A stretch of 64,000 nt of DNA from a plasmid: sequence record NZ_CP025192.1; one strand, given 5' to 3'. The translations under genes and the position numbers were made by a program. This document shows positions 17,094-63,034 of the stretch, one piece after another. The notes under the pieces were generated by a model that was not told where the DNA came from, did no database searches, and was given only the letters and a program-made list of their open reading frames with translations. Numbering within the stretch: the stretch's first letter is position 1; each line of letters opens with the position of its first letter.

Positions 17094-19903
17094 GACGCGC
17101 CGCCCGCCGGGCCGCCAACGCGCAGCATGAGAACGGAGTGGAGGTCGGGCACGCGGATCTCGGCGGCGTCGAGCCGCGCCATGCGGGTCTCGTGCTCCGC
17201 GCGCAGGCGCCTGCGGCGATACTCGCGCACGCTCGGGAGCCCGATGCGGCCGATGGCCTGATACCTGACTTCGTAGGCGTGGCGGGCGCGGTCGCGCTCC
17301 TCCCGGATGCGGGCTGCGTGCTCTTCCGCCAGCTCGGCGAAGACCTGCTCACCGTTGGAGACGGCCGCACGCTTGGCGTCGTGGAACCACCGGCCCGGGA
17401 CCTTCTCCGAGGAAAGCCCGACCAGCCGGATGCGCTCCGTGACGAGGAGATCCCAGATCCGCCTCGCGGTCGGCATGAACATGCGCCCCTCGTCGCTCAC
17501 GAAGACCGCCAGGAAGCGCCGCCTGCCGAAGTCCTCGGCCGACAGACCGATCTGCCAAAGGGACCACACGCCCCTGACGGTATCGGGCAGCCCGCCGACC
17601 TCGACCACCGGGAGCGGCTGACCGTCCACGCAGCGGGGCAGCTCGGTGATGACGGCCCGGGCCCGCGCGTCCTCGAGCGTGACCCACTCCACGTCCGGCC
17701 GGCTCGCCGCGGTACGCGCGTCGAAGCACGCACCGACAGATTCGCTGCCGTCGATCCAGCGGAGACGCCACGTATCGCCGTCCTTGATCGCAGCGCCCCC
17801 CTTCCCCGGCAGGCCGGTCGTGATCGCCCGCTCGAGCCAGAACTGCGCGGGGTGGTCCTGCCACTTGCGTGCGCCTTCCGCGTCGAGCTCCTGGTCGCCG
17901 GCGAGGAGGTCGACGTTCCTGCGGCTCTCTGCGACTGCCGACCGGAGCTGCGACGCCACCGCATCGCACTCGGCTTCGATCGCGTCCGGGTTCTGGAGGC
18001 CCTGCACGAACAGCTCGTCGAACAGCCCGTCCGCCTCAACCGAGTCCATCACGTCCGCCGCCTTGTCGACGCCAAACTCCTCCGCGATGACGGCGAGCTT
18101 CGCCTCGAGAACCTCGCGGACCCGGTGCTCGACGGTGTCCTCAAGGACCAGGTTGATCGCGCGCACCACATGCGGCTGGCCGATGCGATCGACGCGACCG
18201 ATGCGCTGCTCGACCCGCATGGGGTTCCACGGCATGTCGAAGTTGACGATCACGTGGCAGAACTGGAGGTTGAGCCCCTCGCCACCGGCGTCGGTGGAGA
18301 CGAGAATCCTGACGTCGCGGGCGAACGCCTGCTGCGCCCGCGTGCGGGTCTCAAGGTCCATGCCGCCGTTGAGCGTTGCGACCGAGAAGCCACGCGCCTC
18401 TAGGAGCGCGGCGAGCATGGCCTGCGTCGGCACGAACTCCGTGAAGACGAGGACCTTCAGCTGCGGGTCCCCTTCCTCCTGCTGGAGTTTGTAGATGAGA
18501 TCCAGCAGCGCCTCGGCTTTCGCGTCGGTCCCCTGGGCCTCAGTAGAGCGGGCGAGCTCGAGAAGCACCTTGACCTCCGCCTTCTCCGTCTGCCAGCCCC
18601 TCGCCTCGACGGCCAAGTCGATCTGCGCCTGGCCGTCCAGATCCGCCCACTCGTCGACGTCGGCGGTCTCGAAAAGGGACGGCTGGAGCTGCGGCTGGTC
18701 CAGCATTGCCAGGCGGTTCTCAAGCGTCGCGCGGATAGCCGCGGTGCTCGACGTCACCAGCCTCTGCATGAGTATCATGAGGAACCCGATGTGCCGCTGC
18801 TTCGCGGCCAGCGCCTGGTTGTAGCCGTGGCGGACGTAGTCGGTGATCGCCTCGTAGAGACTCCTCTGGGCCGCGTGGCGGTCCTGCCATGCTACGGGAT
18901 GCAGCCTCGTCATCCGCGGCTTGAAGAGGGCCCTGCCTTCCGCGTCGATCGCGGCGCGCTTCTCCGTCCGGATCACGAACGGCCGGACGCGGTCGCTCGT
19001 CACGCTACTCTCGTCGGGGAAGGAATCGCGGTCGAGCAGCTGCATGAGCCGGTGGAACTGGTCGGTCTTGCCCTGGTGGGGCGTCGCCGACAGGAGGAGC
19101 AGGTAGGGTGCGGCCTCGGCCAGCGCCGCCCCGAGCTTGTACCGCGCGACCTGGTCCGTGCTGCCGCCCATGCGGTGCGCTTCGTCGATGATGACCAGGT
19201 CCCACGACGCCGAGACCAGGTCCTCGAAGCGCTCCCGGTTGTACGTGCTGAGCTGCTCGAGGGTCCAGCCGCGGCGCCCGTCCAGGGGCTTTACGGAATC
19301 GAGCGAGCAGATCACCTGGTCGTGGAGTCGCCAGAGGTTCTCCTCGTCGCTGCGCCACTGGCGGAAAGCGGAGAGCTCGGCCGGTTCGACGAATTGGAAG
19401 CTCTCGCCGAAGTGCAGCCGCATCTCCGCCTGCCACTGGCGCACGAGCCCCTTGGGCGCGACGACGAGGATCCGCTTCGCCATGCCGCGGAGCTTCAGCT
19501 CGCGTAGGATCAGCCCGGCCTCGATCGTCTTCCCGAGGCCCACCTCGTCCGCCAGGAGGTAGCGGATCCGGTGGCGCGCCATCGCGCGGTTCAGCGCGTA
19601 GAGCTGGTGCGGCAGCGGCACCACGCTGGACTGGACCGGCGCGAGCAGGAGGTCGTCCTCCAGCGCGTCGAGCAACCTCGCCGCCGCTGCGGTATGCAGG
19701 ACGTGTTCGACCGTGGGCTGGACGGAGCCGAGCTGCGCGAGATCCTTCTCGCGGGCGCGTACGACAGCGTCACGGCTAGGCAGCCAAACCCGATAGGCGA
19801 CCTCGCCCCAGATCTCTTCCCGGTCGATCACCCGGCAGGGTGCGGCATGTCGTCCGTGCCAACACCAATCGCCTACCGAGTGCCTGCCGCCGAGCTTGTT
19901 CAC
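17090..19903 (-). CDS. brxHII: BREX type-3 helicase BrxHII (SNF2/DEAD-like superfamily-2 helicase)
   Basis: Walker A DEVGLGKT, DEAH box (IIDEAHRMG), helicase-C motifs (FTEF...STDAGGEGLNLQ...QRIGRVDRIGQ). GTG start at 19903 forms GTGA overlap with pglXI stop. Confidence 0.8.
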   Translation of the reverse strand: MNKLGGRHSVGDWCWHGRHAAPCRVIDREEIWGEVAYRVWLPSRDAVVRAREKDLAQLGSVQPTVEHVLHTAAAARLLDALEDDLLLAPVQSSVVPLPHQLYALNRAMARHRIRYLLADEVGLGKTIEAGLILRELKLRGMAKRILVVAPKGLVRQWQAEMRLHFGESFQFVEPAELSAFRQWRSDEENLWRLHDQVICSLDSVKPLDGRRGWTLEQLSTYNRERFEDLVSASWDLVIIDEAHRMGGSTDQVARYKLGAALAEAAPYLLLLSATPHQGKTDQFHRLMQLLDRDSFPDESSVTSDRVRPFVIRTEKRAAIDAEGRALFKPRMTRLHPVAWQDRHAAQRSLYEAITDYVRHGYNQALAAKQRHIGFLMILMQRLVTSSTAAIRATLENRLAMLDQPQLQPSLFETADVDEWADLDGQAQIDLAVEARGWQTEKAEVKVLLELARSTEAQGTDAKAEALLDLIYKLQQEEGDPQLKVLVFTEFVPTQAMLAALLEARGFSVATLNGGMDLETRTRAQQAFARDVRILVSTDAGGEGLNLQFCHVIVNFDMPWNPMRVEQRIGRVDRIGQPHVVRAINLVLEDTVEHRVREVLEAKLAVIAEEFGVDKAADVMDSVEADGLFDELFVQGLQNPDAIEAECDAVASQLRSAVAESRRNVDLLAGDQELDAEGARKWQDHPAQFWLERAITTGLPGKGGAAIKDGDTWRLRWIDGSESVGACFDARTAASRPDVEWVTLEDARARAVITELPRCVDGQPLPVVEVGGLPDTVRGVWSLWQIGLSAEDFGRRRFLAVFVSDEGRMFMPTARRIWDLLVTERIRLVGLSSEKVPGRWFHDAKRAAVSNGEQVFAELAEEHAARIREERDRARHAYEVRYQAIGRIGLPSVREYRRRRLRAEHETRMARLDAAEIRVPDLHSVLMLRVGGPAGGAS

Positions 19904-46239: not shown

Positions 46240-46935
46240 ATGCCGACCATATCTCTTGCCAGCTCTAAAGGTGGCGCTGGCAAGTCCACGACAGCCGTCG
46301 TCCTGGCGACCGAACTCGCCGCGCGTGGCGCGACCGTCACTCTCATTGATGCCGACCCGAACCAGCCGGTCGTCCGATGGAGCCGGAAGGCCGGGAAGCC
46401 GGAAGGTGTTATTGTCATCGGCGGCGTCACCGAGGAAACAGTGTCGGAGGTGATCGATGAGGCTGCCGGCCAGACGCAATTCGTCATTGTTGACCTGGAA
46501 GGCACGGCGTCCGTCATGGTCGCCTATGCCATGAGCCGGTCGGATCTGGTCATCATACCGATGCAGGGGTCGGAACTCGACGGTGTCGAGGCGGCCAAGG
46601 TGATCGGCTTCATCAGGCGGCAGGAGAAGGCCTACAAGCTGTCGATCCCATACGCTGTCCTGTTCACTAAGACGAACCCGGCCGTCCGGCCGCGGACGCT
46701 GAAAGCGCTTGAAGCGGACTTCCTGAAGCAGGGCATCCCCGTTTTCTCGACCGCCCTGCATGAACGGGACGCGTTCCGCGCCGTGTTTAGCTTCGGCGGC
46801 GGCTTGGCCAGCTTGGCCGACAAGCCTGTCGGCGGATTGAAGCCCGCAGCCGAGAACGCCCGCGCCCTGATGACCGAAGTCGTAACCCGCCTGGATAAGC
46901 AGGCGGCGCCAGCCCAAGCCGCGGAGGTCGCATAA
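46240..46935 (+). CDS. parA: ParA-family partition ATPase (second copy, different lineage)
   Basis: Deviant Walker A SSKGGAGKSTTA. 231 aa. Confidence 0.85.
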   Translation: MPTISLASSKGGAGKSTTAVVLATELAARGATVTLIDADPNQPVVRWSRKAGKPEGVIVIGGVTEETVSEVIDEAAGQTQFVIVDLEGTASVMVAYAMSRSDLVIIPMQGSELDGVEAAKVIGFIRRQEKAYKLSIPYAVLFTKTNPAVRPRTLKALEADFLKQGIPVFSTALHERDAFRAVFSFGGGLASLADKPVGGLKPAAENARALMTEVVTRLDKQAAPAQAAEVA

Positions 46936-47360
46936 TGTCCAACATACGCCCCAGCATCTTCGCCGAGGACTCTGACGACGACGTCGACCTTACCCGTTTC
47001 GCGCCGAAGGCTCTGAAGCCACCGCCTGTGCCAGCCGCCGACATACGCCGCCTGTCCGAGGAATCCGGCTTTCCCAGTCGTGCGCCGTCATCTGGCGACA
47101 GACAGACAACAGTAGCGCAACTGTCAACTGTTGGCACTTTGCCAGCACCTGTGCGCCGCCCCGCAAAGACAGGCCGGACCCAGCTGTTGAACGCCCGCGT
47201 CACGCCGAAGGCGCTTGAGCGCTATCATGCGATCGTCGCAGCCGAGCAGCAGCGGTACGAGGCCGGGGAAATCACGCATAAGCCGACGCTCGGTGAGATC
47301 GTCGAGATGGCCCTGGCGGCCCTGGAGAGGGAGCGCGCCAAGAAGGGAAGGGGGGCATGA
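46935..47360 (+). CDS. ParG/ParB-like small partition protein (RHH C-terminus)
   Basis: 141 aa, start overlapping parA stop. C-terminal TQLLNARVTPKALERYHAIVAAEQ resembles an RHH beta-strand/helix. Position downstream of parA. Confidence 0.5.
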   Translation: MSNIRPSIFAEDSDDDVDLTRFAPKALKPPPVPAADIRRLSEESGFPSRAPSSGDRQTTVAQLSTVGTLPAPVRRPAKTGRTQLLNARVTPKALERYHAIVAAEQQRYEAGEITHKPTLGEIVEMALAALERERAKKGRGA

Positions 47361-48223
47361 GCGGAAAGCGCCCGGTCGTCCGGCCCCAGCTGGACCTGTT
47401 TGTCCCGTTCCTGTCCGACATCGATCTGCGCGACCAGATGGAGCTGATGGAGCGGCCGTTCTTCAGCCTGTCCAAGAACAAGCGGATGAGGGAGATCGAC
47501 TACAGGAGCCCGGACGGCACAGTCAGCCTCAAGGTGAAGCCGCACCAGGCCTATGGTATGGCGACGATCTGGGATGCCGACATCCTGATCTGGGCGGCGT
47601 CGCAGCTGAGCAGCATGAAGAACAAGGGCGTCAACGACCTGCCCCGCACGCTGCACACCCGCACCTATGATCTGTTGAAGGCGATCGGCCGTGGCACGGG
47701 CGGCGACCATGCGAAGCTGCTGGTCGTCGGCATCGCTCGCCTTAAATCGATGATGATCGAGACGAACATCGGCCGCAAGGACGGAGAAGAGATGGCGATC
47801 TTCAGCTGGATCGACGCCGGCGGCGGGACGGCATACTGGTCGGTGACGACGATGCCGGGATCTCGATCACGCTGTCGGACTGGTTCTATCGCCGCGTGCT
47901 GGACGACCGCGCCCTGCTGACGATCGACCCGGCTTATTTCGCGATCACCGGCGGCCGCGAACGCTGGCTGTACCGCGTCGCGCGCAAGCATGGCGGCGGC
48001 AACGGCGGCAACGGCTTCGCCATCAGCTTCCCAACTCTGTTCGAGAAATCCGGTGCCGAGGGCACCTATCGGCGCTTCAAGTTCGAGCTGCTGAAAATCA
48101 TCGAGCGCAACGCGCTGCCAGGATTCGACCTGTTCCTGGAGACGGGGAGAGGAGGGGACCCAGCCCTGCGTATGGTGCGCGCGACGGAGCCTAAGGCCGA
48201 GCCGGCAGACGATCAGCTCCTGG
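47357..48223 (+). pseudogene. repA: RPA-family replication initiator repA, frameshifted near 47818-47830 (G-run) and abutted at its 3' end by IS6 copy B
   Basis: Frame A (47357-47920): LMERPFFSLSKNKRMREIDYRSPDGTVSLKVKPHQAYGMATIWDADILIWAASQL...LLKAIGRGTGGDHAKL...IETNIGRKDGEE. Frame B (47896-48282) continues ...ITLSDWFYRRVLDDRALLTIDPAYFAITGGRERWLYRVARKHGGG...RRFKFELLKIIERN. The IS6 terminus starts at 48224. Confidence 0.6.
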
Positions 48224-49053
48224 GGCATTGTCACGTTGTTTGGGGACCGAGCAAGTTTGACCGCGAGGCGGAGTTTGCGTGACCTTACGCCGCCATATGG
48301 GCACACGTCTCCTGCCGCCAGATCCGAAAGGCCTTGGAGCGCTCGCGCCGGTATTGATCGGCGGCCATCAGGTGCCGCCGCGGACGGAAGTGGCCATAGA
48401 TCATCGCGTGCGCCGACAAAAACCGCTGGGCTTGCCCGGCTGACTTGAAGCGCTGCATCGCGCGTTCTCGACGTCGGGTCGGCCTATGGGAATTCTCGGC
48501 ACGATTGTTCAGGTAGCGGCTGGTCCGATGCTGCACACCGGGTAGGACCTCTCGCTGTGCAACGCCATAGCTGCGGAGCCCATCGGTGACGATCTTGCGG
48601 GGTCTATACTGGAGGCCCACCAGCAGGCGCTTGAAGAAGCGTTTGGCGGCCGTGGCATTGCGGCGCTCCTGCACCAGGATGTCGAGCACGACTCCGTGCT
48701 GATCCACCGCGCGCCAGAGATAAAAGAGCTCGCCGTTGATCTTCAGGTAAACTTCATCCATGTGCCAGGTGTCGCCCGGTCTTGGCCGCCGCTTGCGCAG
48801 CTTGGCCGCGAACTCCGTGCCGAAGCGGAGGCACCAGCGACGGATACTCTCGTAGCTGACCACCACGCCCCGCTCGGCCAGGATCAGCTCGATGTCGCGT
48901 AGGCTCAGGCTGAACAGGTGGTAGAGCCAGACAGCATGCTGGATGACCTCGGCCGGGAAACGGTAGCCGGGGTAGGTGGTGGGCTCGGACGGCATGCCGC
49001 CAGCTTCGCCTGACGAGTTCGTTCCAGCCAGAGCTGGCCAACGTGACAATGCC
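48224..49053 (-). mobile_element. IS6-family insertion sequence, copy B (complete, inverted relative to copy A)
   Basis: Terminal inverted repeats GGCATTGTCACGTTG (48224-48238) and CAACGTGACAATGCC (49039-49053). 830 bp. Confidence 0.85.
48285..48995 (-). CDS. tnpA: IS6-family transposase
   Basis: 236 aa from ATG 48995 (MPSEPTTYPGYRFPAEVIQHAVWLYHLF...). Identical to partial copy A. Confidence 0.9.
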   Translation of the reverse strand: MPSEPTTYPGYRFPAEVIQHAVWLYHLFSLSLRDIELILAERGVVVSYESIRRWCLRFGTEFAAKLRKRRPRPGDTWHMDEVYLKINGELFYLWRAVDQHGVVLDILVQERRNATAAKRFFKRLLVGLQYRPRKIVTDGLRSYGVAQREVLPGVQHRTSRYLNNRAENSHRPTRRRERAMQRFKSAGQAQRFLSAHAMIYGHFRPRRHLMAADQYRRERSKAFRIWRQETCAHMAA

Positions 49054-49196
49054 CCGGGTCGCACTGGAGAATGGCCAGGGCGTCACCGAATTCGAGCCCA
49101 ATCACAGCGCGGCCAATGAGATCAGGGGCGTGTGGAAGTGGTTGAAGACCGAACTTGGTATCGCTCGGCAAAGGCAGGAGAGGGCGGCTTAAGAAG

Positions 49197-49577
49197 ATGG
49201 CACGACGCAGCAGCGCGATTGCCAACCTGGATATCGAGGCGGAAGGTTTGGCACAGCCGGATGGCCTGGCGGAACGTCTTCAGCGGAACCGCGAGACCCG
49301 AACCACAACGGTATCTGCGATCACCTCTCCGACGAAAGGAGCCGCACAGCCTGCCGATCCGGCTTCTGCTGTCAACATGCCGCCTGGACGCAGTGGAGGC
49401 CGAGGCCGAAATGACTGGCGCAACGGGAAGGCCATGGTCCAGGTGGCTCTCGATGAGGAGATGCACACCGAACTGAGCATCATCGCCAAGCGTCGAAGGA
49501 TGACGCTGAGCCAGCTTGCCCGCGAAGCCATGAACCTTTGGCTCGAAACCCACGGGCATACCCTTCGCATCCGATGA
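49197..49577 (+). CDS. ribbon-helix-helix (CopG/Arc-like) DNA-binding protein
   Basis: 126 aa from MARRSSAIANLD. C-terminal KAMVQVALDEEMHTELSIIAKRRRMTLSQLAREAMNLWLE is an RHH. Followed immediately by dyad operators. Confidence 0.6.
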   Translation: MARRSSAIANLDIEAEGLAQPDGLAERLQRNRETRTTTVSAITSPTKGAAQPADPASAVNMPPGRSGGRGRNDWRNGKAMVQVALDEEMHTELSIIAKRRRMTLSQLAREAMNLWLETHGHTLRIR

Positions 49578-49584
49578 AGCTAGA

Positions 49585-49640
49585 CCTCATTACCTCATGA
49601 GGTAACTTCATGTCCTCATGGTCTCATGAGGAATATTAAC
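49585..49640. promoter_or_regulatory. dyad-symmetric operator cluster (TACCTCATGAGGTA palindrome and TGTCCTCATG-gtct-CATGAGGAAT)
   Basis: cattaCCTCATGAGGtaacttcatgTCCTCATGgtctCATGAGGAatatt. The second dyad recurs at 62568-62597 as TGTCCTCATGaacaCATGAGGGAAT. Confidence 0.55.
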
Positions 49641-49879
49641 TGCCTTGTCTGCGGTGGTCCGCAGTCTCCGTCTAGCCATTACGTCCGAACGATAACCGAG
49701 CCGGCCGCTACAGCGGCTCGGCGCATTCGTGGTTCCGGACTGCTGGGTAGGCGGCAAGGACATGAAGTCCCTCACAGCGATTGCCGTTTCCGTTCGCACC
49801 GCAGCTGACAATCCTCGAACCGGGCCGGATTGGAGGGCAACGGGTATGAGAGGACATCTGGGGGGCAGGGAAGATCCGC

Positions 49880-49990
49880 TACCGCTAGCGTCGGACGCGC
49901 GACAAGGGTTCGTCGCTGCGCTCCCGCGCCGGGGCAGGCCCCGGCCGCGCCCTTGTCCCGCCTCCGCCTCGCGGTCGCCGGGTGGAATCC
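49880..49990 (+). repeat. GC-rich structured repeat element, copy A (upstream of Toprim gene)
   Basis: core cgcgcGACAAGGGttcgtcgctgcgctcccgcgcc...gcgCCCTTGTCccgcc, same family as copies at 54245, 56180, 59290 and 62625. ATG of next gene about 20 bp downstream. Confidence 0.6.
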
Positions 49991-50009
49991 AGGCGAAGGA
50001 TTCCGGGCG

Positions 50010-50963
50010 ATGAGTGGGCATGACGAGGAACTGCAGCGGCTGCGCGAGGGGGTGAACTGTGCAGCCCTGCTTGAACGGTTGACGCCCCCATGGCGGCTGG
50101 ACAAGGCCGCCAGCACACGGGACTGCCTCAAGTACCGCCGGGGCAAGGGCGAGATCATCATCGTCAACCATGGCGGCCACGGCTGGTGGGACGCCGGGGG
50201 CACCGCCAAGGGCGACGTGTTCGGGCTGGTGCAGCACCTGAACCCCGGACTGAGCTTCGGCCATGTCCGCAAGCTGCTGCGGGAGATGATCGGGCTCCAG
50301 CCCAGCTTTCCCGAGCACCCTCGGACGGTCAGGGCCGCCGGCGACGGCATCCCAGCAGCGGATCGCTGGACCGCGGCCCGTCCTCTCCGCCCGGGCGGCA
50401 GGGCCTGGCGCTACCTGACGGAAGCCCGCCGGCTGCCGGGCCCGATCCTGCGGGCCGCCGTAGCGTCCGATGCGATCCGGGAGGGCGCCTATGGCACGGC
50501 CTGGTTCGCTCACCGCGACGAGTTGGGCGCCCTGACCGGCTTCGAGATGCGGGGCGCGGATTTCCGTGGCTTCGCCAAGGGGGCGGACAAGACCCTGTTC
50601 CGGCTGCCCGGTTGGATCCCGTCGCAGCCACGGCGCCCGAGCCGGCTGGCCGTGGCCGAGGCGCCGATCGACGCCCTCAGCCTCGCGGCCATCGAACGGT
50701 TGCGGGGCGACACCCTCTACGTGGCGACGTCCGGAGGCATGGGCCCCGGAACGGTACGCGGTCTCGCCCTCCTGCTGGCGGACCTGGCCACCTTCCCGGA
50801 TGCCCTGCTGGCCAGCGCGACCGACAACGATCCGGCTGGCGATCGCTATGCCGCCATGCTGGCCGAGCAGGCCGCGGCGGTCGGCGTGCGCTGCGAACGG
50901 CTGGCGCCGCCCGCGCCACTGAACGACTGGAACGACGCGCTGACACAGGGGAGGGGGGCATGA
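50010..50963 (+). CDS. DUF3991/Toprim-domain protein (conjugative-plasmid primase-like)
   Basis: 317 aa from ATG 50010. C-terminal Toprim-like acidic motifs (LAVAEAPIDALSLAAIE...ATDNDPAGDRYA). Typical leading-region gene. Confidence 0.6.
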   Translation: MSGHDEELQRLREGVNCAALLERLTPPWRLDKAASTRDCLKYRRGKGEIIIVNHGGHGWWDAGGTAKGDVFGLVQHLNPGLSFGHVRKLLREMIGLQPSFPEHPRTVRAAGDGIPAADRWTAARPLRPGGRAWRYLTEARRLPGPILRAAVASDAIREGAYGTAWFAHRDELGALTGFEMRGADFRGFAKGADKTLFRLPGWIPSQPRRPSRLAVAEAPIDALSLAAIERLRGDTLYVATSGGMGPGTVRGLALLLADLATFPDALLASATDNDPAGDRYAAMLAEQAAAVGVRCERLAPPAPLNDWNDALTQGRGA

Positions 50964-59414: not shown

Positions 59415-60380
59415 ATGGCTCAGCCTCGCCGTCAGACCGCCGATCGCCCGGCTCCCCGCGACCATTACGCCGAGATCACCAGCCAGATCGTGGAGGCCCT
59501 GGAGGCCGGCACGGTGCCGTGGCGCCGGCCCTGGGACCAGGACAAGGCCGGTGCCGGTCCGCTGTCGCCCCGCAACGGGGTCACCGGGCGCCGCTACCAC
59601 GGGATCAATGTGCTGCTGCTGGGCATGACCGGCCTGGCCTTCGCCGGCACGGATCCCCGCTGGCTCACCTACAGGCAGGCCGAGGAGAAGGGGTGGCAGG
59701 TCCGCCGCGGCGAGCGCGGCAGCCGCGTCTTCTTCTTCCGCAAGCTGACCCTGCGGGACGGCGACGCCGCACCCGAGGCGGGAGGCGAGGGCACCCGCAC
59801 CGTGCCGGTGCTTCGTGCGTACACGGTGTTCCACGCGAGCCAGGTGGAGGGCATCCCGAGCTTCGAGGCCCCGTCCACCGAGAAGGCCTCCTGGCGCACG
59901 CCCGAGGCGGCCGAGACGATCATGCGCAACAGCGGCGTGGCGTTCCGGGAAGGAGGCGACCGCGCCTACTACTGGCCGGCGACGGACCACATCCAGATGC
60001 CGCCGCGCGCGGCCTTCGCCACGCCGGAGGGCTACTGCGCCACGGGCCTGCACGAGCTGGCTCACGCCTCCGGCGCGAAGCACCGCCTCGACCGTGACCT
60101 GACGGGTCGCTTCGGCAGCCACGCCTATGCCCAGGAGGAGCTCCGTGCCGAGCTGACATCCTGCTTCGTCGGCGCCGAGCTGGGCCTGCCCTGCGACATC
60201 CCGAACCACGCCAGCTACGTCTCATCGTGGCTCAGGACGCTTCGGCAGGACAAGCGCGAGATCTTCCGCGCCGCGGCCGAGGCCCAGCGCATGGCCGACT
60301 ACCTGCTCGGCTTCCATCCCGGGCACGCCCGACGGGCGGCCGAGGAGGCGCGGCGCGACGAGGCCGCGGAGGCGGCGTGA
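59415..60380 (+). CDS. ardC: ArdC-like antirestriction protein (ssDNA-binding N-domain + zincin-like metalloprotease domain)
   Basis: N-domain IVEALEAGTVPWRRPW...GRRYHGINVLLL...WLTYRQAEEKGWQVRRGERGS is ArdC-like. C-domain HELAHAS (HExxH) zincin motif. 321 aa. Confidence 0.8.
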   Translation: MAQPRRQTADRPAPRDHYAEITSQIVEALEAGTVPWRRPWDQDKAGAGPLSPRNGVTGRRYHGINVLLLGMTGLAFAGTDPRWLTYRQAEEKGWQVRRGERGSRVFFFRKLTLRDGDAAPEAGGEGTRTVPVLRAYTVFHASQVEGIPSFEAPSTEKASWRTPEAAETIMRNSGVAFREGGDRAYYWPATDHIQMPPRAAFATPEGYCATGLHELAHASGAKHRLDRDLTGRFGSHAYAQEELRAELTSCFVGAELGLPCDIPNHASYVSSWLRTLRQDKREIFRAAAEAQRMADYLLGFHPGHARRAAEEARRDEAAEAA

Positions 60381-61390
60381 GCGCCGCCCTGCTGCCCGGC
60401 GCGGCGGCGCTGGCCCCGGAGCTGCGCTCCTACGACCACGTCATCCTGTTCACCTCGGGGGGCAAGGACGCCACGGCCTGCCTGGTCGAGCTGCTGGAGC
60501 GCGGCGTGCCGCCCGCGCGCATCGAGCTGCACCACCACGAGGTGGATGGCCGCGGCGAGGCCTCCATGGACTGGCCCGTGACCGGCGCCTACGTCGCGGC
60601 ACAGGCGGCGGCGTTCGGGCTGCCGCTCTACCGCTCCTGGCGCGAGGGCGGCTTCGAGCGGGAGATGCTGCGCCAGGATGCACCGACGGCGCCGATCCTG
60701 TTCGAGACCCCTCATGGCCTCATGAGGACAGGAGGGGCCGGACCGCGCAACACCCGGCTGCTGTTCCCGCAGGTCTCGGCCGACCTGTCGGTGCGCTGGT
60801 GGTGCTCGGCGGCCCTCAAGATCGGCGTCGGCGCGGCCGCCATCGCCGGCCAGGCCCGCTTCCTCGGGCGCCGGACCCTGGTCGTGACCGGCGAGCGGGC
60901 GCAGGAGAGCCCGGCCCGGGCGCGCTACGCCATCTTCGAGCCGCACCGTACCGACACGCGCGGCGGCTCGCGCCGGTCCCGCCACGTCGATCACTGGCGA
61001 CCGGTCCATGGCTGGGACGAGGTGCGGGTCTGGGACGCGCTGCGGCGTCACGGCGTGCGGCCGCACCCGGCCTACGAGCTGGGCTGGTCGCGGCTGTCCT
61101 GCATGTCCTGCATCTTCGGGTCGGCCTCGCAGTGGGCGACGATCCGCCTGATCGCGCCGGTCCTGTTCGAGCGCATCGCGGCCTACGAGGAGCGCTTCGG
61201 CCGCACCATCCAGCGCGCCCGCTCCGTTCGCGCGCTGGCCGATCTCGGCCGCCCCTATCCCGCCGCCCTCGCGCGACCCGATCTCGTCTCCCTCGCCCTG
61301 AGCACGCTCTGGGACCTGCCGATCCTCGGCCCGCCCGCAGGCTGGACGCATCCGGCCGGCGCCTTCGGCGAGGCCGCCGGCCCGACCTGA
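60377..61390 (+). CDS. PAPS-reductase-family PP-loop ATP pyrophosphatase-like protein
   Basis: N-terminal PP-loop ILFTSGGKDATAC. GTG start forming GTGA overlap with ardC stop, preceded by GGAGG. 337 aa. Confidence 0.6.
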   Translation: MSAALLPGAAALAPELRSYDHVILFTSGGKDATACLVELLERGVPPARIELHHHEVDGRGEASMDWPVTGAYVAAQAAAFGLPLYRSWREGGFEREMLRQDAPTAPILFETPHGLMRTGGAGPRNTRLLFPQVSADLSVRWWCSAALKIGVGAAAIAGQARFLGRRTLVVTGERAQESPARARYAIFEPHRTDTRGGSRRSRHVDHWRPVHGWDEVRVWDALRRHGVRPHPAYELGWSRLSCMSCIFGSASQWATIRLIAPVLFERIAAYEERFGRTIQRARSVRALADLGRPYPAALARPDLVSLALSTLWDLPILGPPAGWTHPAGAFGEAAGPT

Positions 61391-62074: not shown

Positions 62075-62537
62075 TCCCCAGGGAGGATGCACCGGACCCG
62101 GTGCCGGGACCGGGGCCGCATCCCCTCGACAGCTGCGAGGACCGCTGTCGCCTGCGGCTGACGCTGCGCGACGGCCGCGTGATCGAAGGCCTGCACAATG
62201 CCGTCCCCCCGAGGTGCGGACCGACCCGTTCTCGGTCCCGAACATGCTCGCCGCGCTGCTCGGGCGGGGCCTCAAGGCACAAATCACCCGATTGGGTGAC
62301 CCGTCGCATCAGCGCGGCCACATCCAGGTGGAGATGCCCGTGAAGGGCCGGGCGCGCTTCGTGCTGATCGGGGAGCCACGCCACGGCACGATCGGCTGGC
62401 GGGCGGTCTGGGACGGCAACGACAGCAAGCCCGGCCTTCGGCGGCGGCGACTGTCCGAGGCGACCGAGGCCTACCGCCGGATGCTCGCGGCCATGCGGGA
62501 GGGGTGCCGCTCCGTCCAACCGGACCTGTTCGGCTGA
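62071..62537 (+). CDS. hypothetical protein with apparent +1/-1 frame break at a C6 run (about 62205-62212)
   Basis: GTG at 62071 (GTGA overlap with previous stop) reads VIPREDAPDPVPGPGPHPLDSCEDRCRLRLTLRDGRVIEGLHNAVPP. After the ccccccg run the coding signal continues in ORF 62214-62537 (MRTDPFSVPNML...). Confidence 0.35.
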
Positions 62538-62554
62538 ACCATACCCTCCTGTGC

Positions 62555-62597
62555 TCATGGGCGCCTGTCCTCATGAACACATGAGGGAATGAGGAAA
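62555..62597. promoter_or_regulatory. second copy of TGTCCTCATG-N4-CATGAGG(G)AAT dyad operator
   Basis: ctgtgctcatgggcgccTGTCCTCATGaacaCATGAGGGAATgagg. Shares both half-sites with 49612-49640. Confidence 0.5.
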
Positions 62598-62624
62598 GGA
62601 GGGGAGACGGGGCAGGACGAGGAG

Positions 62625-62760
62625 ATGGGCGCTGCCACCGCGCTCCGGGGCGCGGCAAGGGTGCGTCGGCTACCGCCTCCCGCCGCTGCGCGGCGCCCTT
62701 GCCCCGCCCCGGACCGGGCGGCCGGCTCGGAAGTGTCTTGAGAGACAGGATACGAGGAGA
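62625..62760 (+). repeat. GC-rich structured repeat element, copy E
   Basis: gggcgctgccaccgcgctccggggcgcGGCAAGGGtgcgtcggctaccgcctcccgccgctgcgcggcgCCCTTGCCccgccccgg...caggatacgaggagagcagggc before ATG 62768. Confidence 0.6.
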
Positions 62761-62767
62761 GCAGGGC

Positions 62768-63034
62768 ATGAGGCAGCGATACAGGGTCTGGCTGGAGGGG
62801 CTGGACGAGCGCAGCCGGGCGCTGGTGCGCCTCGGCGGTGCCTGGTCCCAGCGCCACTGGGCCAACACCGGCTTCTTCGACGTTCCCGGCCAGGTGATGC
62901 GGGATCTGGTCGCGGCAGGCTACGCCGAGAGCCGCAAGCCATCCCCGAATTGCCCCACCGAGTACCGTGGGCTGCCGCCGGCGGTGTTCGCCGCGCAGCC
63001 GATCAAGCGGACCAGCCCCGCCTTCGGCACCTGA
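62768..63034 (+). CDS. hypothetical small protein
   Basis: 88 aa MRQRYRVWLEGLDERSRALVRLGGAWSQRHWANTGFFDVPGQVMRDLVAAGYAESRKP. Confidence 0.4.
   Translation: MRQRYRVWLEGLDERSRALVRLGGAWSQRHWANTGFFDVPGQVMRDLVAAGYAESRKPSPNCPTEYRGLPPAVFAAQPIKRTSPAFGT

Follow-up and report, generated by a model that had tools for sequence, protein, structure and literature searches.

A probable type Ib partition cassette, broken by an IS6-family element, and its predicted repeat arrays in plasmid record NZ_CP025192.1

We analyzed a window of 64,000 nt from the plasmid record NZ_CP025192.1 and found that the small gene at 49197-49577, together with the inverted repeats behind it, is probably what is left of a plasmid partition cassette. 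The gene is likely to encode the centromere-binding protein (CBP) of a type Ib, ParF/ParG-like system, and the repeats are likely to be its cognate binding arrays. As shown by comparison with related plasmids, the ancestral unit ran in the order box arrays, parA, ribbon-helix-helix (RHH) gene, box arrays; an IS6 insertion has removed most of parA, the upstream arrays and the promoter from the window. The partition function described here belongs to that ancestor, not to the window copy. The initial annotation had suggested a dedicated repressor of the establishment region. That view was not supported: the protein is a probable ParA partner. The parA stump and the IS6 had been overlooked.

49197..49577, + strand: candidate CBP gene, 126 aa (Pfam, profile, AF2, Foldseek and alignment)

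The open reading frame has 126 codons, from an ATG at 49197 to a TGA at 49575-49577. In the alignment, residues 1-32 of the protein form a conserved N-terminal peptide, the linker that follows is variable and probably disordered, and residues ~77-120 make up a C-terminal RHH domain. This is the layout of type Ib CBPs, which combine a flexible N-terminal part with a C-terminal RHH domain (PMC3074162). The RHH assignment, already proposed from the sequence alone, is supported by several comparisons and by the structural model. Pfam Antitox_RHH matched with 25.7 bits, slightly under its curated cut-off of 27.2; the family profile matched the RHH protein ORF56 (2k9i) in the PDB at E 2.5e-4; and NCBIfam and PDB gave weak matches to the ORF56 plasmid copy-control protein. 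The AF2 model reached pLDDT 78-92 across residues 80-120: the two-helix C-terminal module was confident, the extended segment before it less so, and the N-terminal half was of low confidence. The best Foldseek matches to the model were RHH proteins throughout, including ParG (1p94) at rank 5, with 26% identity across 39 residues. Foldseek E-values were weak because the RHH domain is small. When all PDB sequences were searched with the HMMER profile (E up to 10), the matches were ORF56, protein 56B and a single unrelated chain; ParG (1p94) and omega were not among them, and the Pfam and NCBIfam scans of the protein gave no ParG family. The RHH family is small (27 cluster representatives among 1.84 billion proteins) and currently labeled 'hypothetical protein'; our literature search on this family or on Roseomonas par systems found nothing specific.

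48224..49053, - strand: IS6-family insertion sequence, 830 bp (NCBIfam transpos_IS6, 225.9 bits; Pfam DDE_Tnp_IS240)
49054..49192, + strand: parA 3' remnant, the last 46 codons including the stop TAA at 49190-49192

The insertion sequence ends in terminal inverted repeats, GGCATTGTCACGTT, and cuts two genes, the RepA gene on its left side and parA on its right side. We found no target-site duplication around it, the flanking 8-mers being unlike (GCTCCTGG vs. CCGGGTCG). At the right edge, IS-only matches in many Roseomonas plasmids stop at 49053/49054, and homology with the plasmid NZ_CP024583.1 begins at 49054 and continues with 99-100% identity. This position equals 16001 of the NZ_CP024583.1 locus (L001), within an annotated ParA gene (L001 15477-16139). 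The intact ParA of that plasmid has 220 aa and lies directly before the RHH gene. It matches ParF of TP228 (4dzz) at E 1.5e-14, its nearest relative among solved structures, as well as NCBIfam and Pfam ParA families. The intact relative presents the type Ib trait of a small Walker ParA without N-terminal HTH, encoded directly upstream of the CBP gene. The parA stump is the remnant of a small ParF-like Walker ATPase gene. No second copy of the cassette was found within the 64-kb window and, because there is no ParA, the system of the window is no longer able to partition on its own.

Immediately after the RHH gene, we delimited two repeat arrays within a stretch of cassette-specific DNA:

49578..49867, no strand: cassette-specific tail (BLAST edges and by-eye alignment of the L015, L016 and L017 junctions)
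49586..49601, no strand: Array A, two tandem 8-bp boxes, CTCATTAC and CTCATGAG, 9 bp past the RHH stop codon
49607..49630, no strand: Array B, three in-phase 8-bp boxes, TTCATGTC, CTCATGGT and CTCATGAG

Both dyads of the initial annotation are present. The perfect palindrome is in fact 16 bp long (49590-49605); it contains TACCTCATGAGGTA (49591-49604), surrounds part of array A and fits a common 18-bp unit, CCTCATTACCTCATGAGG, at 49585-49602 with 1 mismatch. The second dyad, TGTCCTCATG-gtct-CATGAGGAAT at 49611-49634, corresponds to array B. Arrays A and B do not share one 8-bp phase, their CTCATGAG boxes being 29 bp apart (49594 to 49623), and array A is identical in L001 and L002. The tail was limited to plasmids with the same par allele. 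Homology with plasmids that carry another allele or no cassette restarts at 49868, which is the start of a structured element, and the BLAST matches of other Roseomonas plasmids begin at this same point (query position 829). Arrays A and B sit within cassette-specific DNA and outside the promoter region of the next gene (DUF3991/toprim), which begins 430 bp downstream of the RHH gene. The sigma-70-like scan found no promoter beside or downstream of them, the terminator scan around the dyads found no terminator-like site, and searching the entire window against Rfam at gathering thresholds returned nothing.

Rather than isolated dyads, these sequences are runs of in-phase tandem 8-bp boxes with the consensus CTCATGAG. 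With up to 2 mismatches allowed, we counted 5 copies of the pattern CCTCATG-N4-CATGAGG in the window, where 0.29 were expected; none of 100 shuffles reached that count, and three of the copies are perfect (49614, 60710 and 62569). In pTT14-4, a complete related replicon of 146.5 kb, double boxes were found at four places only: upstream of par, downstream of par, and at two distant sites that we call arrays C and D (10 matches vs. ~0.55 in shuffles). The refuting condition named in the initial annotation, a motif frequent at random positions, therefore does not apply in this replicon. The box CTCATGAG is 64-fold enriched in the par flanks, and boxes are enriched 50- to 64-fold across 11 loci; CATG-to-CATG spacing in these flanks is nearly always 8, 16, 24, 32, or 40 bp. 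The 280 bp before parA of NZ_CP024583.1 hold at least six further copies of the motif on both sides of a promoter-like site. By consensus scan, this site (L001 15295-15324) has two box pairs on its upstream side and, on the other side, a cluster of at least four boxes that immediately precedes parA.

The same arrangement recurs well beyond close relatives. Among 11 distant loci from other genomes, with RHH proteins 46-59% identical, parA lies directly upstream of the RHH gene in ten, and boxes precede parA in all ten. Boxes also follow right after the RHH stop codon in eight of the ten related loci that reach beyond it, and ParA is adjacent to the RHH gene in L027, L030, and L032 too. In diverged relatives, the box changes with the RHH sequence. 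Proteins with the beta-strand DKAMLMVPM go with CTCAATAT/ATATTGAGG boxes, those with GKTLLQVML with nnCAT(G/A)nn boxes, and those with GKKIVSIYI with TGCCTA(C/G)A boxes.

Within Roseomonas plasmids, the cassette occupies a par slot with the imuB/dnaE2 genes on one side and the DUF3991/toprim gene on the other; in cassette-less plasmids, dnaE2 is joined straight to the structured element and the DUF3991 gene. The same slot may hold an alternative cassette with TTTCCCGAAA-type repeats on both sides of par and an unrelated 134-aa protein, another one with an inverted parA and its own repeat set, or a fourth one annotated as ParA and ParG. Since the boxes flank most of the related cassettes, are exchanged together with the protein and co-vary with the RHH sequence, the dyads are very probably binding sites of the RHH protein, as the initial annotation had predicted.

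By analogy with ParG, omega, and pCXC100 ParB, one RHH dimer would bind each 8-bp box with its beta-ribbon in the major groove. The box can be read as CTCATGAG or, on the same analogy, as the tetramer (C)CTC with a 4-bp spacer resembling ATGA. Binding of dimers along a row of in-phase tandem boxes would be cooperative. The upstream arrays, overlapping the par promoter, would mediate autorepression, and the arrays flanking the operon, once coated with protein, would form the partition complex. The N-terminal peptide, MARR..LDIxAEGLAQQDGLAERLARxR, may contact ParA and stimulate its ATPase.

This scheme is closest to TP228 ParF-ParG, where OF/parH consist of ACTC boxes with 4-bp AT-rich spacers, one ParG dimer binds per box, and the arrays upstream of the operon are both operator and centromere (PMC3130281). 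In both systems a small Walker ATPase comes first and a small RHH protein, flexible in its N-terminal part, comes next; both have an 8-bp period with a 4-bp core ((C)CTC here, ACTC in TP228) and a 4-bp A/T-rich spacer, in direct or inverted orientation. However, our protein has 126 aa instead of the 76 of ParG, with a long conserved N-terminal peptide and a linker, and the link between them is at the fold level only; moreover, the arrays here also occur behind the operon and at two or three other sites. In that respect, the system resembles omega (ParB) of pSM19035, an RHH centromere-binding protein with delta as its ParA, which uses contiguous short repeats, direct and inverted, at several places for partition and for the repression of several promoters (PMC9499535), although for our protein the binding is predicted. 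Omega shows no sequence similarity to it and recognizes heptads (WATCACW, 7 bp) that are not palindromic and come 7 to 10 in a row, whereas here the boxes are 8-bp and palindrome-like in runs of 2 to 6; also, all the omega sites in pSM19035 overlap promoters, and no promoter was found here at A/B, C, or D. Repeat regions on both sides of the operon are known from par2 of pB171 (order parC1, parA, parB, parC2), with ParB repeats on either side of parAB (PMC4270457), where proteins and repeat sequences are unrelated to ours.

The initial annotation had compared the proposed control to that by the KorA/KorB operators of IncP plasmids. The KorB analogy is fair in the sense of 'works like', because KorB is also a partition protein, but ParG (TP228), omega (pSM19035), and StbA (R388) are closer analogues. 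MetJ is an RHH repressor that binds tandem 8-bp palindromic metboxes, one dimer per box; it is chromosomal, metabolic and co-repressor-dependent and has no ParA partner, so the likeness is geometric only.

Two other explanations of the gene and of the adjacent dyads have little in their favor. The RHH protein might be an antitoxin with a toxin partner, or an unrelated copy-number repressor of the CopG kind, with the dyads as its auto-operator; the top Pfam match to Antitox_RHH and the weak ORF56 matches would fit. Yet its neighbors are the parA stump upstream and the DUF3991/toprim gene downstream, with nothing toxin-like, the partner is a ParA ATPase in nearly all the distant loci and in the intact relatives, and the conserved N-terminal peptide is typical of CBPs that contact ParA. 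With the toxin gene absent and ParA as constant neighbor, we rejected the toxin-antitoxin pair, and this whole explanation is extremely improbable. Arrays A and B might instead act as RNA, as two hairpins that close the par operon at its 3' end and serve as terminator or mRNA stabilizer. Their RNA does fold into two hairpins (-24.1 kcal/mol, z-score -3.3, with 2 of 200 shuffles as stable), and both A/B and D begin 9 bp past a stop codon. Nevertheless, the hairpins lack a U-tract, the same boxes occur upstream of parA and repA, away from any 3' end, and several relatives have direct tandem repeats unable to form a long hairpin (CTCATGAGGACATGAGGTCATGAGG in L004). Conservation extends to the sequence and the 8-bp phase, beyond mere pairing, and we consider a role as RNA very unlikely.

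Outside the par flanks, the boxes form two distal arrays:

60711..60734, no strand: Array C, three boxes, CTCATGGC, CTCATGAG and GACAGGAG, within a PAPS-reductase-family gene, 60377-61390 (Pfam PAPS_reduct)
62546..62593, no strand: Array D, six in-phase positions, CTCCTGTG, CTCATGGG, CGCCTGTC, CTCATGAA, CACATGAG and GGAATGAG

Array D is intergenic and 48 bp long, inside an imperfect 60-bp palindrome (62544-62603) between the stop codon at 62535-62537 and structured-element copy E, whose core (62651) follows ~60 bp after the array ends. It includes the recurrence of the second dyad ~13 kb away described initially, with both half-sites intact, as TGTCCTCATG-aaca-CATGAGGGAAT at 62566-62590. Array C had been taken for a possibly coincidental copy within a coding sequence. 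It is no weak look-alike, since the copy at 60710 matches the pattern perfectly. The array encodes PHGLMRTG in rare codons (CCT 9%, AGG 9%, ACA 6%); for this peptide, the joint probability of such codons is 6e-4. The idea that it is a by-product of a conserved peptide was rejected, as box-less homologues encode varying peptides (PQGLMRAGG, PHGVMRTGG, PDGVRQTGG) and use common codons where those of the window are rare. Both arrays are genuine, non-random clusters. Most simply, they would be extra binding sites of the same RHH protein, and the hypotheses for their role are the silencing of leading-region genes, an accessory centromere, or a relic.

The first of these roles can be taken further: the RHH protein would chiefly repress the establishment (leading) region, with A/B and D as operators of two distant promoters and C as a possible roadblock, so that a partition protein doubles as global regulator like omega (pSM19035), StbA (R388), and KorB (RK2). 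There are precedents in omega, which binds repeats at the promoters of copS, delta, and omega (PMC9499535), and in StbA, with 2, 3, 5, or 10 stbDR repeats at the stbA, ardC, orf7, orf12, and orf14 promoters, some of them in the leading region (bioRxiv 10.1101/2022.04.29.490116). StbA and KorB, segregation proteins that repress leading-region or backbone promoters via small copies of centromere repeats, are helix-turn-helix and not RHH proteins, StbA works without ParA, and for our protein such repression is conjectured only. In favor, C and D are the sole clusters outside the par flanks in the complete 146.5-kb replicon, array D lies symmetric and intergenic just before a leading-region element and gene, and the rare codons of array C are not demanded by the peptide. 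In addition, four distant relatives have a third box cluster ahead of the oriV iterons and repA, which would make multi-site binding, as predicted, a family trait. On the other hand, the sigma-70-like consensus scan found no promoter at 62300-62900 around array D, none was predicted beside array C, and A/B belong to the cassette and not to the conserved region upstream of the DUF3991 gene. Of the five structured-element copies, just two have boxes in their vicinity. Array D is weaker in L015, in L017 and even in NZ_CP024583.1 with its intact cassette than in the window. Finally, TTTCCCGAAA-type repeats were not found in 21 kb of leading region beyond their own par cassette and its flank, so distal sites are no general property of the slot. 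Of the original proposal that one repressor controls two distant promoters, the distant recurrence is real; the promoters were not predicted, and C and D persist without the RHH cassette. We regard chief repression of the leading region as possible but rather unlikely.

That persistence is the main argument for a different explanation, namely that C and D are not RHH sites but relics, sites of another factor, or part of the local sequence repertoire. Both arrays are present in L015, L017, and L019, plasmids with another par allele or none; and a one-box form of array C occurs in L025 and L026, where the slot lacks a cassette. The arrays do not co-vary with the RHH cassette, although the comparison of 13 related plasmids carries little information, these being mosaic and closely related. 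The palindromic hexamer TCATGA could also be a restriction/modification target, and several methyltransferases are encoded in the leading region. Against this, a 14/14 match in the 8-bp phase of the par arrays occurs twice within 1.9 kb and is otherwise absent from 146 kb. Both arrays are degraded in L016, which carries another par allele, with D partly deleted. Moreover, strains harbor several co-resident plasmids, and so the RHH protein could act in trans. This explanation also seems to us a minority possibility, and we keep additional RHH sites as the simplest reading of C and D. As for the structured element, its stability as single-stranded DNA was like that of shuffled sequence (z-score -0.14).

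The overall picture will be unsurprising to plasmid biologists, but what appeared to be a stand-alone regulator with operators becomes an annotated partition module, and a small uncharacterized RHH family gains a candidate binding box, CTCATGAG, with an 8-bp phase. Coexisting Roseomonas plasmids swap whole par cassettes, together with their cognate repeats, at one fixed slot, which is a plausible escape from partition incompatibility. The distal arrays bear on whether RHH partition proteins regulate alphaproteobacterial leading regions, as StbA and KorB do in enterobacterial plasmids. It is a possible though doubtful idea that this partition protein also silences leading-region (establishment) genes via arrays D and C, a role that would survive the IS6 loss of ParA and might explain why the gene was retained.

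If its gene is still transcribed, the RHH protein of the window could continue to bind all four arrays, A to D. One sequence at the IS6 junction may be relevant to its transcription:

49043..49072, + strand: possible hybrid promoter, -35 GTGACA in the IS6 terminal repeat and -10 GAGAAT in the parA stump

This was the sole sigma-70-like match in 48900-50100 by consensus scan (9 of 12 positions; 0.3 expected) and, speculatively, it could drive the orphaned RHH gene.

The ribbon-helix-helix (RHH) gene lies in a new, uncharacterised cassette that very probably belongs to the well-known type Ib partition systems with an RHH protein and has been disabled in the window by an IS6 element. Re-reading the sequence placed the open reading frame where the initial annotation had it, from the ATG at 49197 to the TGA at 49577 (126 codons), and its assignment to the RHH proteins was borne out by profile and structure comparisons. 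The protein scored 25.7 bits against Antitox_RHH of Pfam, slightly below the cut-off of 27.2, and a family profile built from 14 members matched ORF56 of pRN1, itself an RHH protein, at E 2.5e-4. AlphaFold2 modelled the C-terminal module (residues 80-120) confidently (pLDDT 78-92) as two helices, with an extended segment of lower confidence before them and an N-terminal half of low confidence. The best Foldseek matches in the PDB were all RHH proteins (ORF56, StnY, ParG 1p94, CopA, Arc, AmrZ, and CopG), superposing at about 1 Å over 39-40 residues, with weak E-values because the RHH domain is small.

In the family alignment, the N-terminal peptide (residues 1-32) is strongly conserved, the linker variable, and the RHH domain conserved. 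This layout matches that of type Ib centromere-binding proteins, whose N-terminal tail touches and activates ParA (PMC3074162). The family is small (27 cluster representatives among 1.84 billion at E ≤ 1e-3), and the source names listed for close homologues were "hypothetical protein" in every case.

Rightwards from 49054, the window is 99-100% identical to the Roseomonas plasmids NZ_CP024583.1, NZ_CP034926.1, and CP099475.1, where an intact ParA gene (220 aa) stops 4 bp ahead of the RHH gene. ParF of TP228 was the closest solved structure to this cognate ParA (E 1.5e-14). The window has the following instead:

48224-49053, IS6-family element of 830 bp, left of the parA stump, with terminal repeats GGCATTGTCACGTT
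49054-49192, parA stump, the last 46 codons and all that the window retains

The transposase of the element scored 225.9 bits against NCBIfam transpos_IS6, and on the side away from the stump a RepA gene (PF10134) is cut short by the element. The 8-mers on either side are not alike, and simple insertion therefore does not account for the junction, which came about through recombination between IS6 copies; a search of the plasmid collection did not recover exactly this RepA-IS6-parA' junction. The RepA gene (47357-48223), which lost its 3' end to IS6, is also broken by a frameshift into a pair of overlapping ORFs, at 47357-47920 and at 47896-48282, a split annotated likewise in CP099475.1 and NZ_CP025063.1. 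In pTT14-4 (CP099475.1), the segments from 49054 on recur in another order and orientation: RepA-IS6 adjoins the gene for an ATP-binding protein, and some 80 kb away the par-DUF3991 block lies inverted beside another IS6 copy. Thus, IS6 copies are actively reshuffling the leading region. Upstream of RepA, a second, unrelated ParA gene (46240-46935, VirC1/ParA_partition-like) is followed by a 141-aa ORF (46935-47360) with no family match. The two genes probably form a partition pair belonging to another replicon module, and this pair may now be responsible for segregating the window's DNA.

Both dyads described directly after the RHH gene were found as claimed: the palindrome TACCTCATGAGGTA at 49591-49604, which is the core of a longer perfect palindrome of 16 bp (49590-49605), and TGTCCTCATG-gtct-CATGAGGAAT at 49611-49634, with its distant recurrence TGTCCTCATG-aaca-CATGAGGGAAT at 62566-62590. 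Allowing up to two mismatches, CCTCATG-N4-CATGAGG has five matches in the window against 0.29 expected, a count reached in none of 100 shuffles. Perfect copies start at 49614, 60710, and 62569, and the first palindrome belongs to a one-mismatch copy of this 18-bp unit (49585-49602). In NZ_CP024583.1, at least six more copies surround a promoter-like site within 280 bp upstream of parA.

We compared 11 loci from other genomes, with RHH proteins 46-59% identical to that of the window. ParA is encoded directly upstream in 10 of them, all 10 with boxes upstream of parA, and boxes directly follow the RHH stop codon in 8 of the 10 loci extending beyond it. In the par flanks, CTCATGAG is 64-fold enriched and CATG cores are spaced almost solely by 8, 16, 24, 32, or 40 bp, hence the sites are runs of tandem 8-bp boxes, and the supposed dyad with a 4-bp spacer is two adjoining boxes. 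Read differently, an array consists of (C)CTC tetramers, each with a 4-bp ATGA-like spacer, in both direct and inverted orientation. The OF operator and the parH centromere of TP228 are built in this way, with ACTC boxes, 4-bp AT-rich spacers, and one ParG dimer per box (PMC3130281). A far longer array than any in the window, about 20 uninterrupted in-phase 8-bp units nnCAT(G/A)nnn, precedes the parA of a diverged member (L030, 1-170). The arrays of the window are:

49586-49601, array A, two boxes
49607-49630, array B, three boxes
60711-60734, array C, three boxes, inside a PAPS-reductase-family gene
62546-62593, array D, six in-phase box positions in a 60-bp imperfect palindrome

In the window and related plasmids, the backbone slot that has dnaE2 on one side and the DUF3991/toprim gene on the other holds the RHH cassette (window 49054-49867), a ParA with an unrelated 134-aa protein and TTTCCCGAAA-type repeats on both sides (L015, L016, and L019; L015 5631-7500), an inverted ParA accompanied by different repeats (L018 5613-7196), or an inverted ParA with an annotated ParG (L024 13593-14970); it is empty in L017, L020, L025, and L026. 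At this one position, related Roseomonas plasmids differ in which of at least four par cassettes they carry, if any, and each cassette brings flanking repeats of its own. This looks like whole-cassette exchange, which perhaps avoids partition incompatibility among many co-resident plasmids. Homology between the alleles restarts only at 49868, so arrays A and B lie inside cassette-specific DNA.

Boxes also vary with the protein. A relative with the beta-strand DKAMLMVPM (GKALLQVAL in the window) has CTCAATAT/ATATTGAGG boxes upstream of its parA, with the 8-bp phase kept; one with GKTLLQVML retains CAT(G/A) cores in its array, which has about 20 boxes; and a more distant ParA-linked RHH protein with GKKIVSIYI has TGCCTA(C/G)A repeats. 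Together with cassette exchange, this co-variation suggests that the boxes belong to the RHH protein. A homologous RHH gene in L007 (4001-4420, on the 429-kb contig CAWGQB010000014.1) has CTCATGAGG boxes directly after its stop and no ParA gene upstream, an "orphan" like the window's copy.

Comparison shows the ancestral unit to be arrays-parA-RHH gene-arrays. The window keeps the RHH gene and downstream arrays, with C and D elsewhere; parA is gone from it, as are the upstream arrays and their promoter. By analogy with ParG, omega, and pCXC100 ParB, an RHH dimer would bind each box through its beta-ribbon and dimers would coat tandem boxes cooperatively; coated arrays would form the partition complex, the upstream ones would mediate autorepression, and the N-terminal peptide would activate the ParA ATPase. 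With its parA gone, the window's copy cannot partition DNA alone. The only promoter-like site is a speculative candidate for transcribing the RHH gene: its -35 hexamer belongs to the IS6 end and its -10 hexamer to the parA stump.

A scan for two adjoining boxes (at least 13 of 16 positions matching) found such pairs at only three places in the window, namely A/B, C, and D, and at four in the complete pTT14-4 (146.5 kb), which are C, D, and the upstream and downstream flanks of par. With 10 matches there against about 0.55 in shuffles, the motif is not common at random positions, and C and D are no coincidence. This includes the copy within a coding sequence (60711-60728), raised earlier as possibly typical or fortuitous: it is a perfect match in one of few clusters, and array C uses rare codons (CCT 9%, AGG 9%, and ACA 6%; joint probability of its six codons given the peptide, 6e-4), while PAPS-reductase homologues without the box have a variable peptide and common codons. 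Array D begins 9 bp past a stop codon, and about 60 bp separate its end from the core of a GC-rich structured element downstream. From their sequences, C and D are two extra putative binding-site clusters of the RHH protein. Just before array D, a hypothetical gene lacks, in the window (62200-62205) and pTT14-4, 480 bp present in NZ_CP024583.1 (L001 29866-30346).

The initial annotation suggested one repressor controlling at least two distant promoters; its sequence observation is confirmed and its interpretation partly supported. Action of the RHH protein at C and D as a global regulator is possible. In four distant relatives, another box cluster, their third, precedes the iterons and the repA gene, which favours multi-site action as a family trait; as precedents, centromere-binding proteins such as omega (PMC9499535) and StbA (bioRxiv 10.1101/2022.04.29.490116) also repress other promoters through short repeat arrays. 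Against a simple regulon model, C and D occur in L015, L017, and L019, all of which lack the RHH gene at the slot; NZ_CP024583.1, with its intact cassette, has a weaker D than the window; both are decayed in L016 (pTT14-2, CP099473.1), which has another par allele; and no sigma-70-like promoter was predicted at D or downstream of A/B. In L016, the copy of C (17849-17870) has a 1-bp deletion and a substitution, D has an 8-bp deletion, and the PAPS-reductase gene is not annotated.

Arrays acting as a terminator or RNA hairpin find some support in a fold z-score of -3.3, but such a role would not explain why boxes also stand upstream of parA and repA, why some arrangements are direct repeats, or why the 8-bp phase is kept. 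The RHH protein as an antitoxin was rejected: a toxin gene is missing, and the constant partner next to the RHH gene is ParA.

In the four metagenomic relatives (L005 1830-2180, L008 1850-2150, L010 1840-2190, and L013 1910-2150), boxes precede 4-5 iterons (GGGGACTYTTGCGGG) and repA (PF04796), followed by iterons, boxes, parA, and the RHH gene, with boxes again after it in two of the four (L010 and L013). RHH boxes thus bracket the whole basic replicon.

The structured element (about 110 nt, core CGSGRCAAGGGTKCGTCG ... CCCTTGYCCCGC) has five copies in the window against 0.13 expected, with cores at:

49898, + strand, first copy, preceding the DUF3991/toprim gene
54268, + strand, second copy
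56205, + strand, third copy
59309, + strand, fourth copy
62651, + strand, last copy (E), preceding a small ORF starting at 62769

It had no match in Rfam, and the first copy as single-stranded DNA was not more stable than shuffled sequence (z-score -0.14). CTCATGAG arrays lie upstream of the first and last copies only (two of five).
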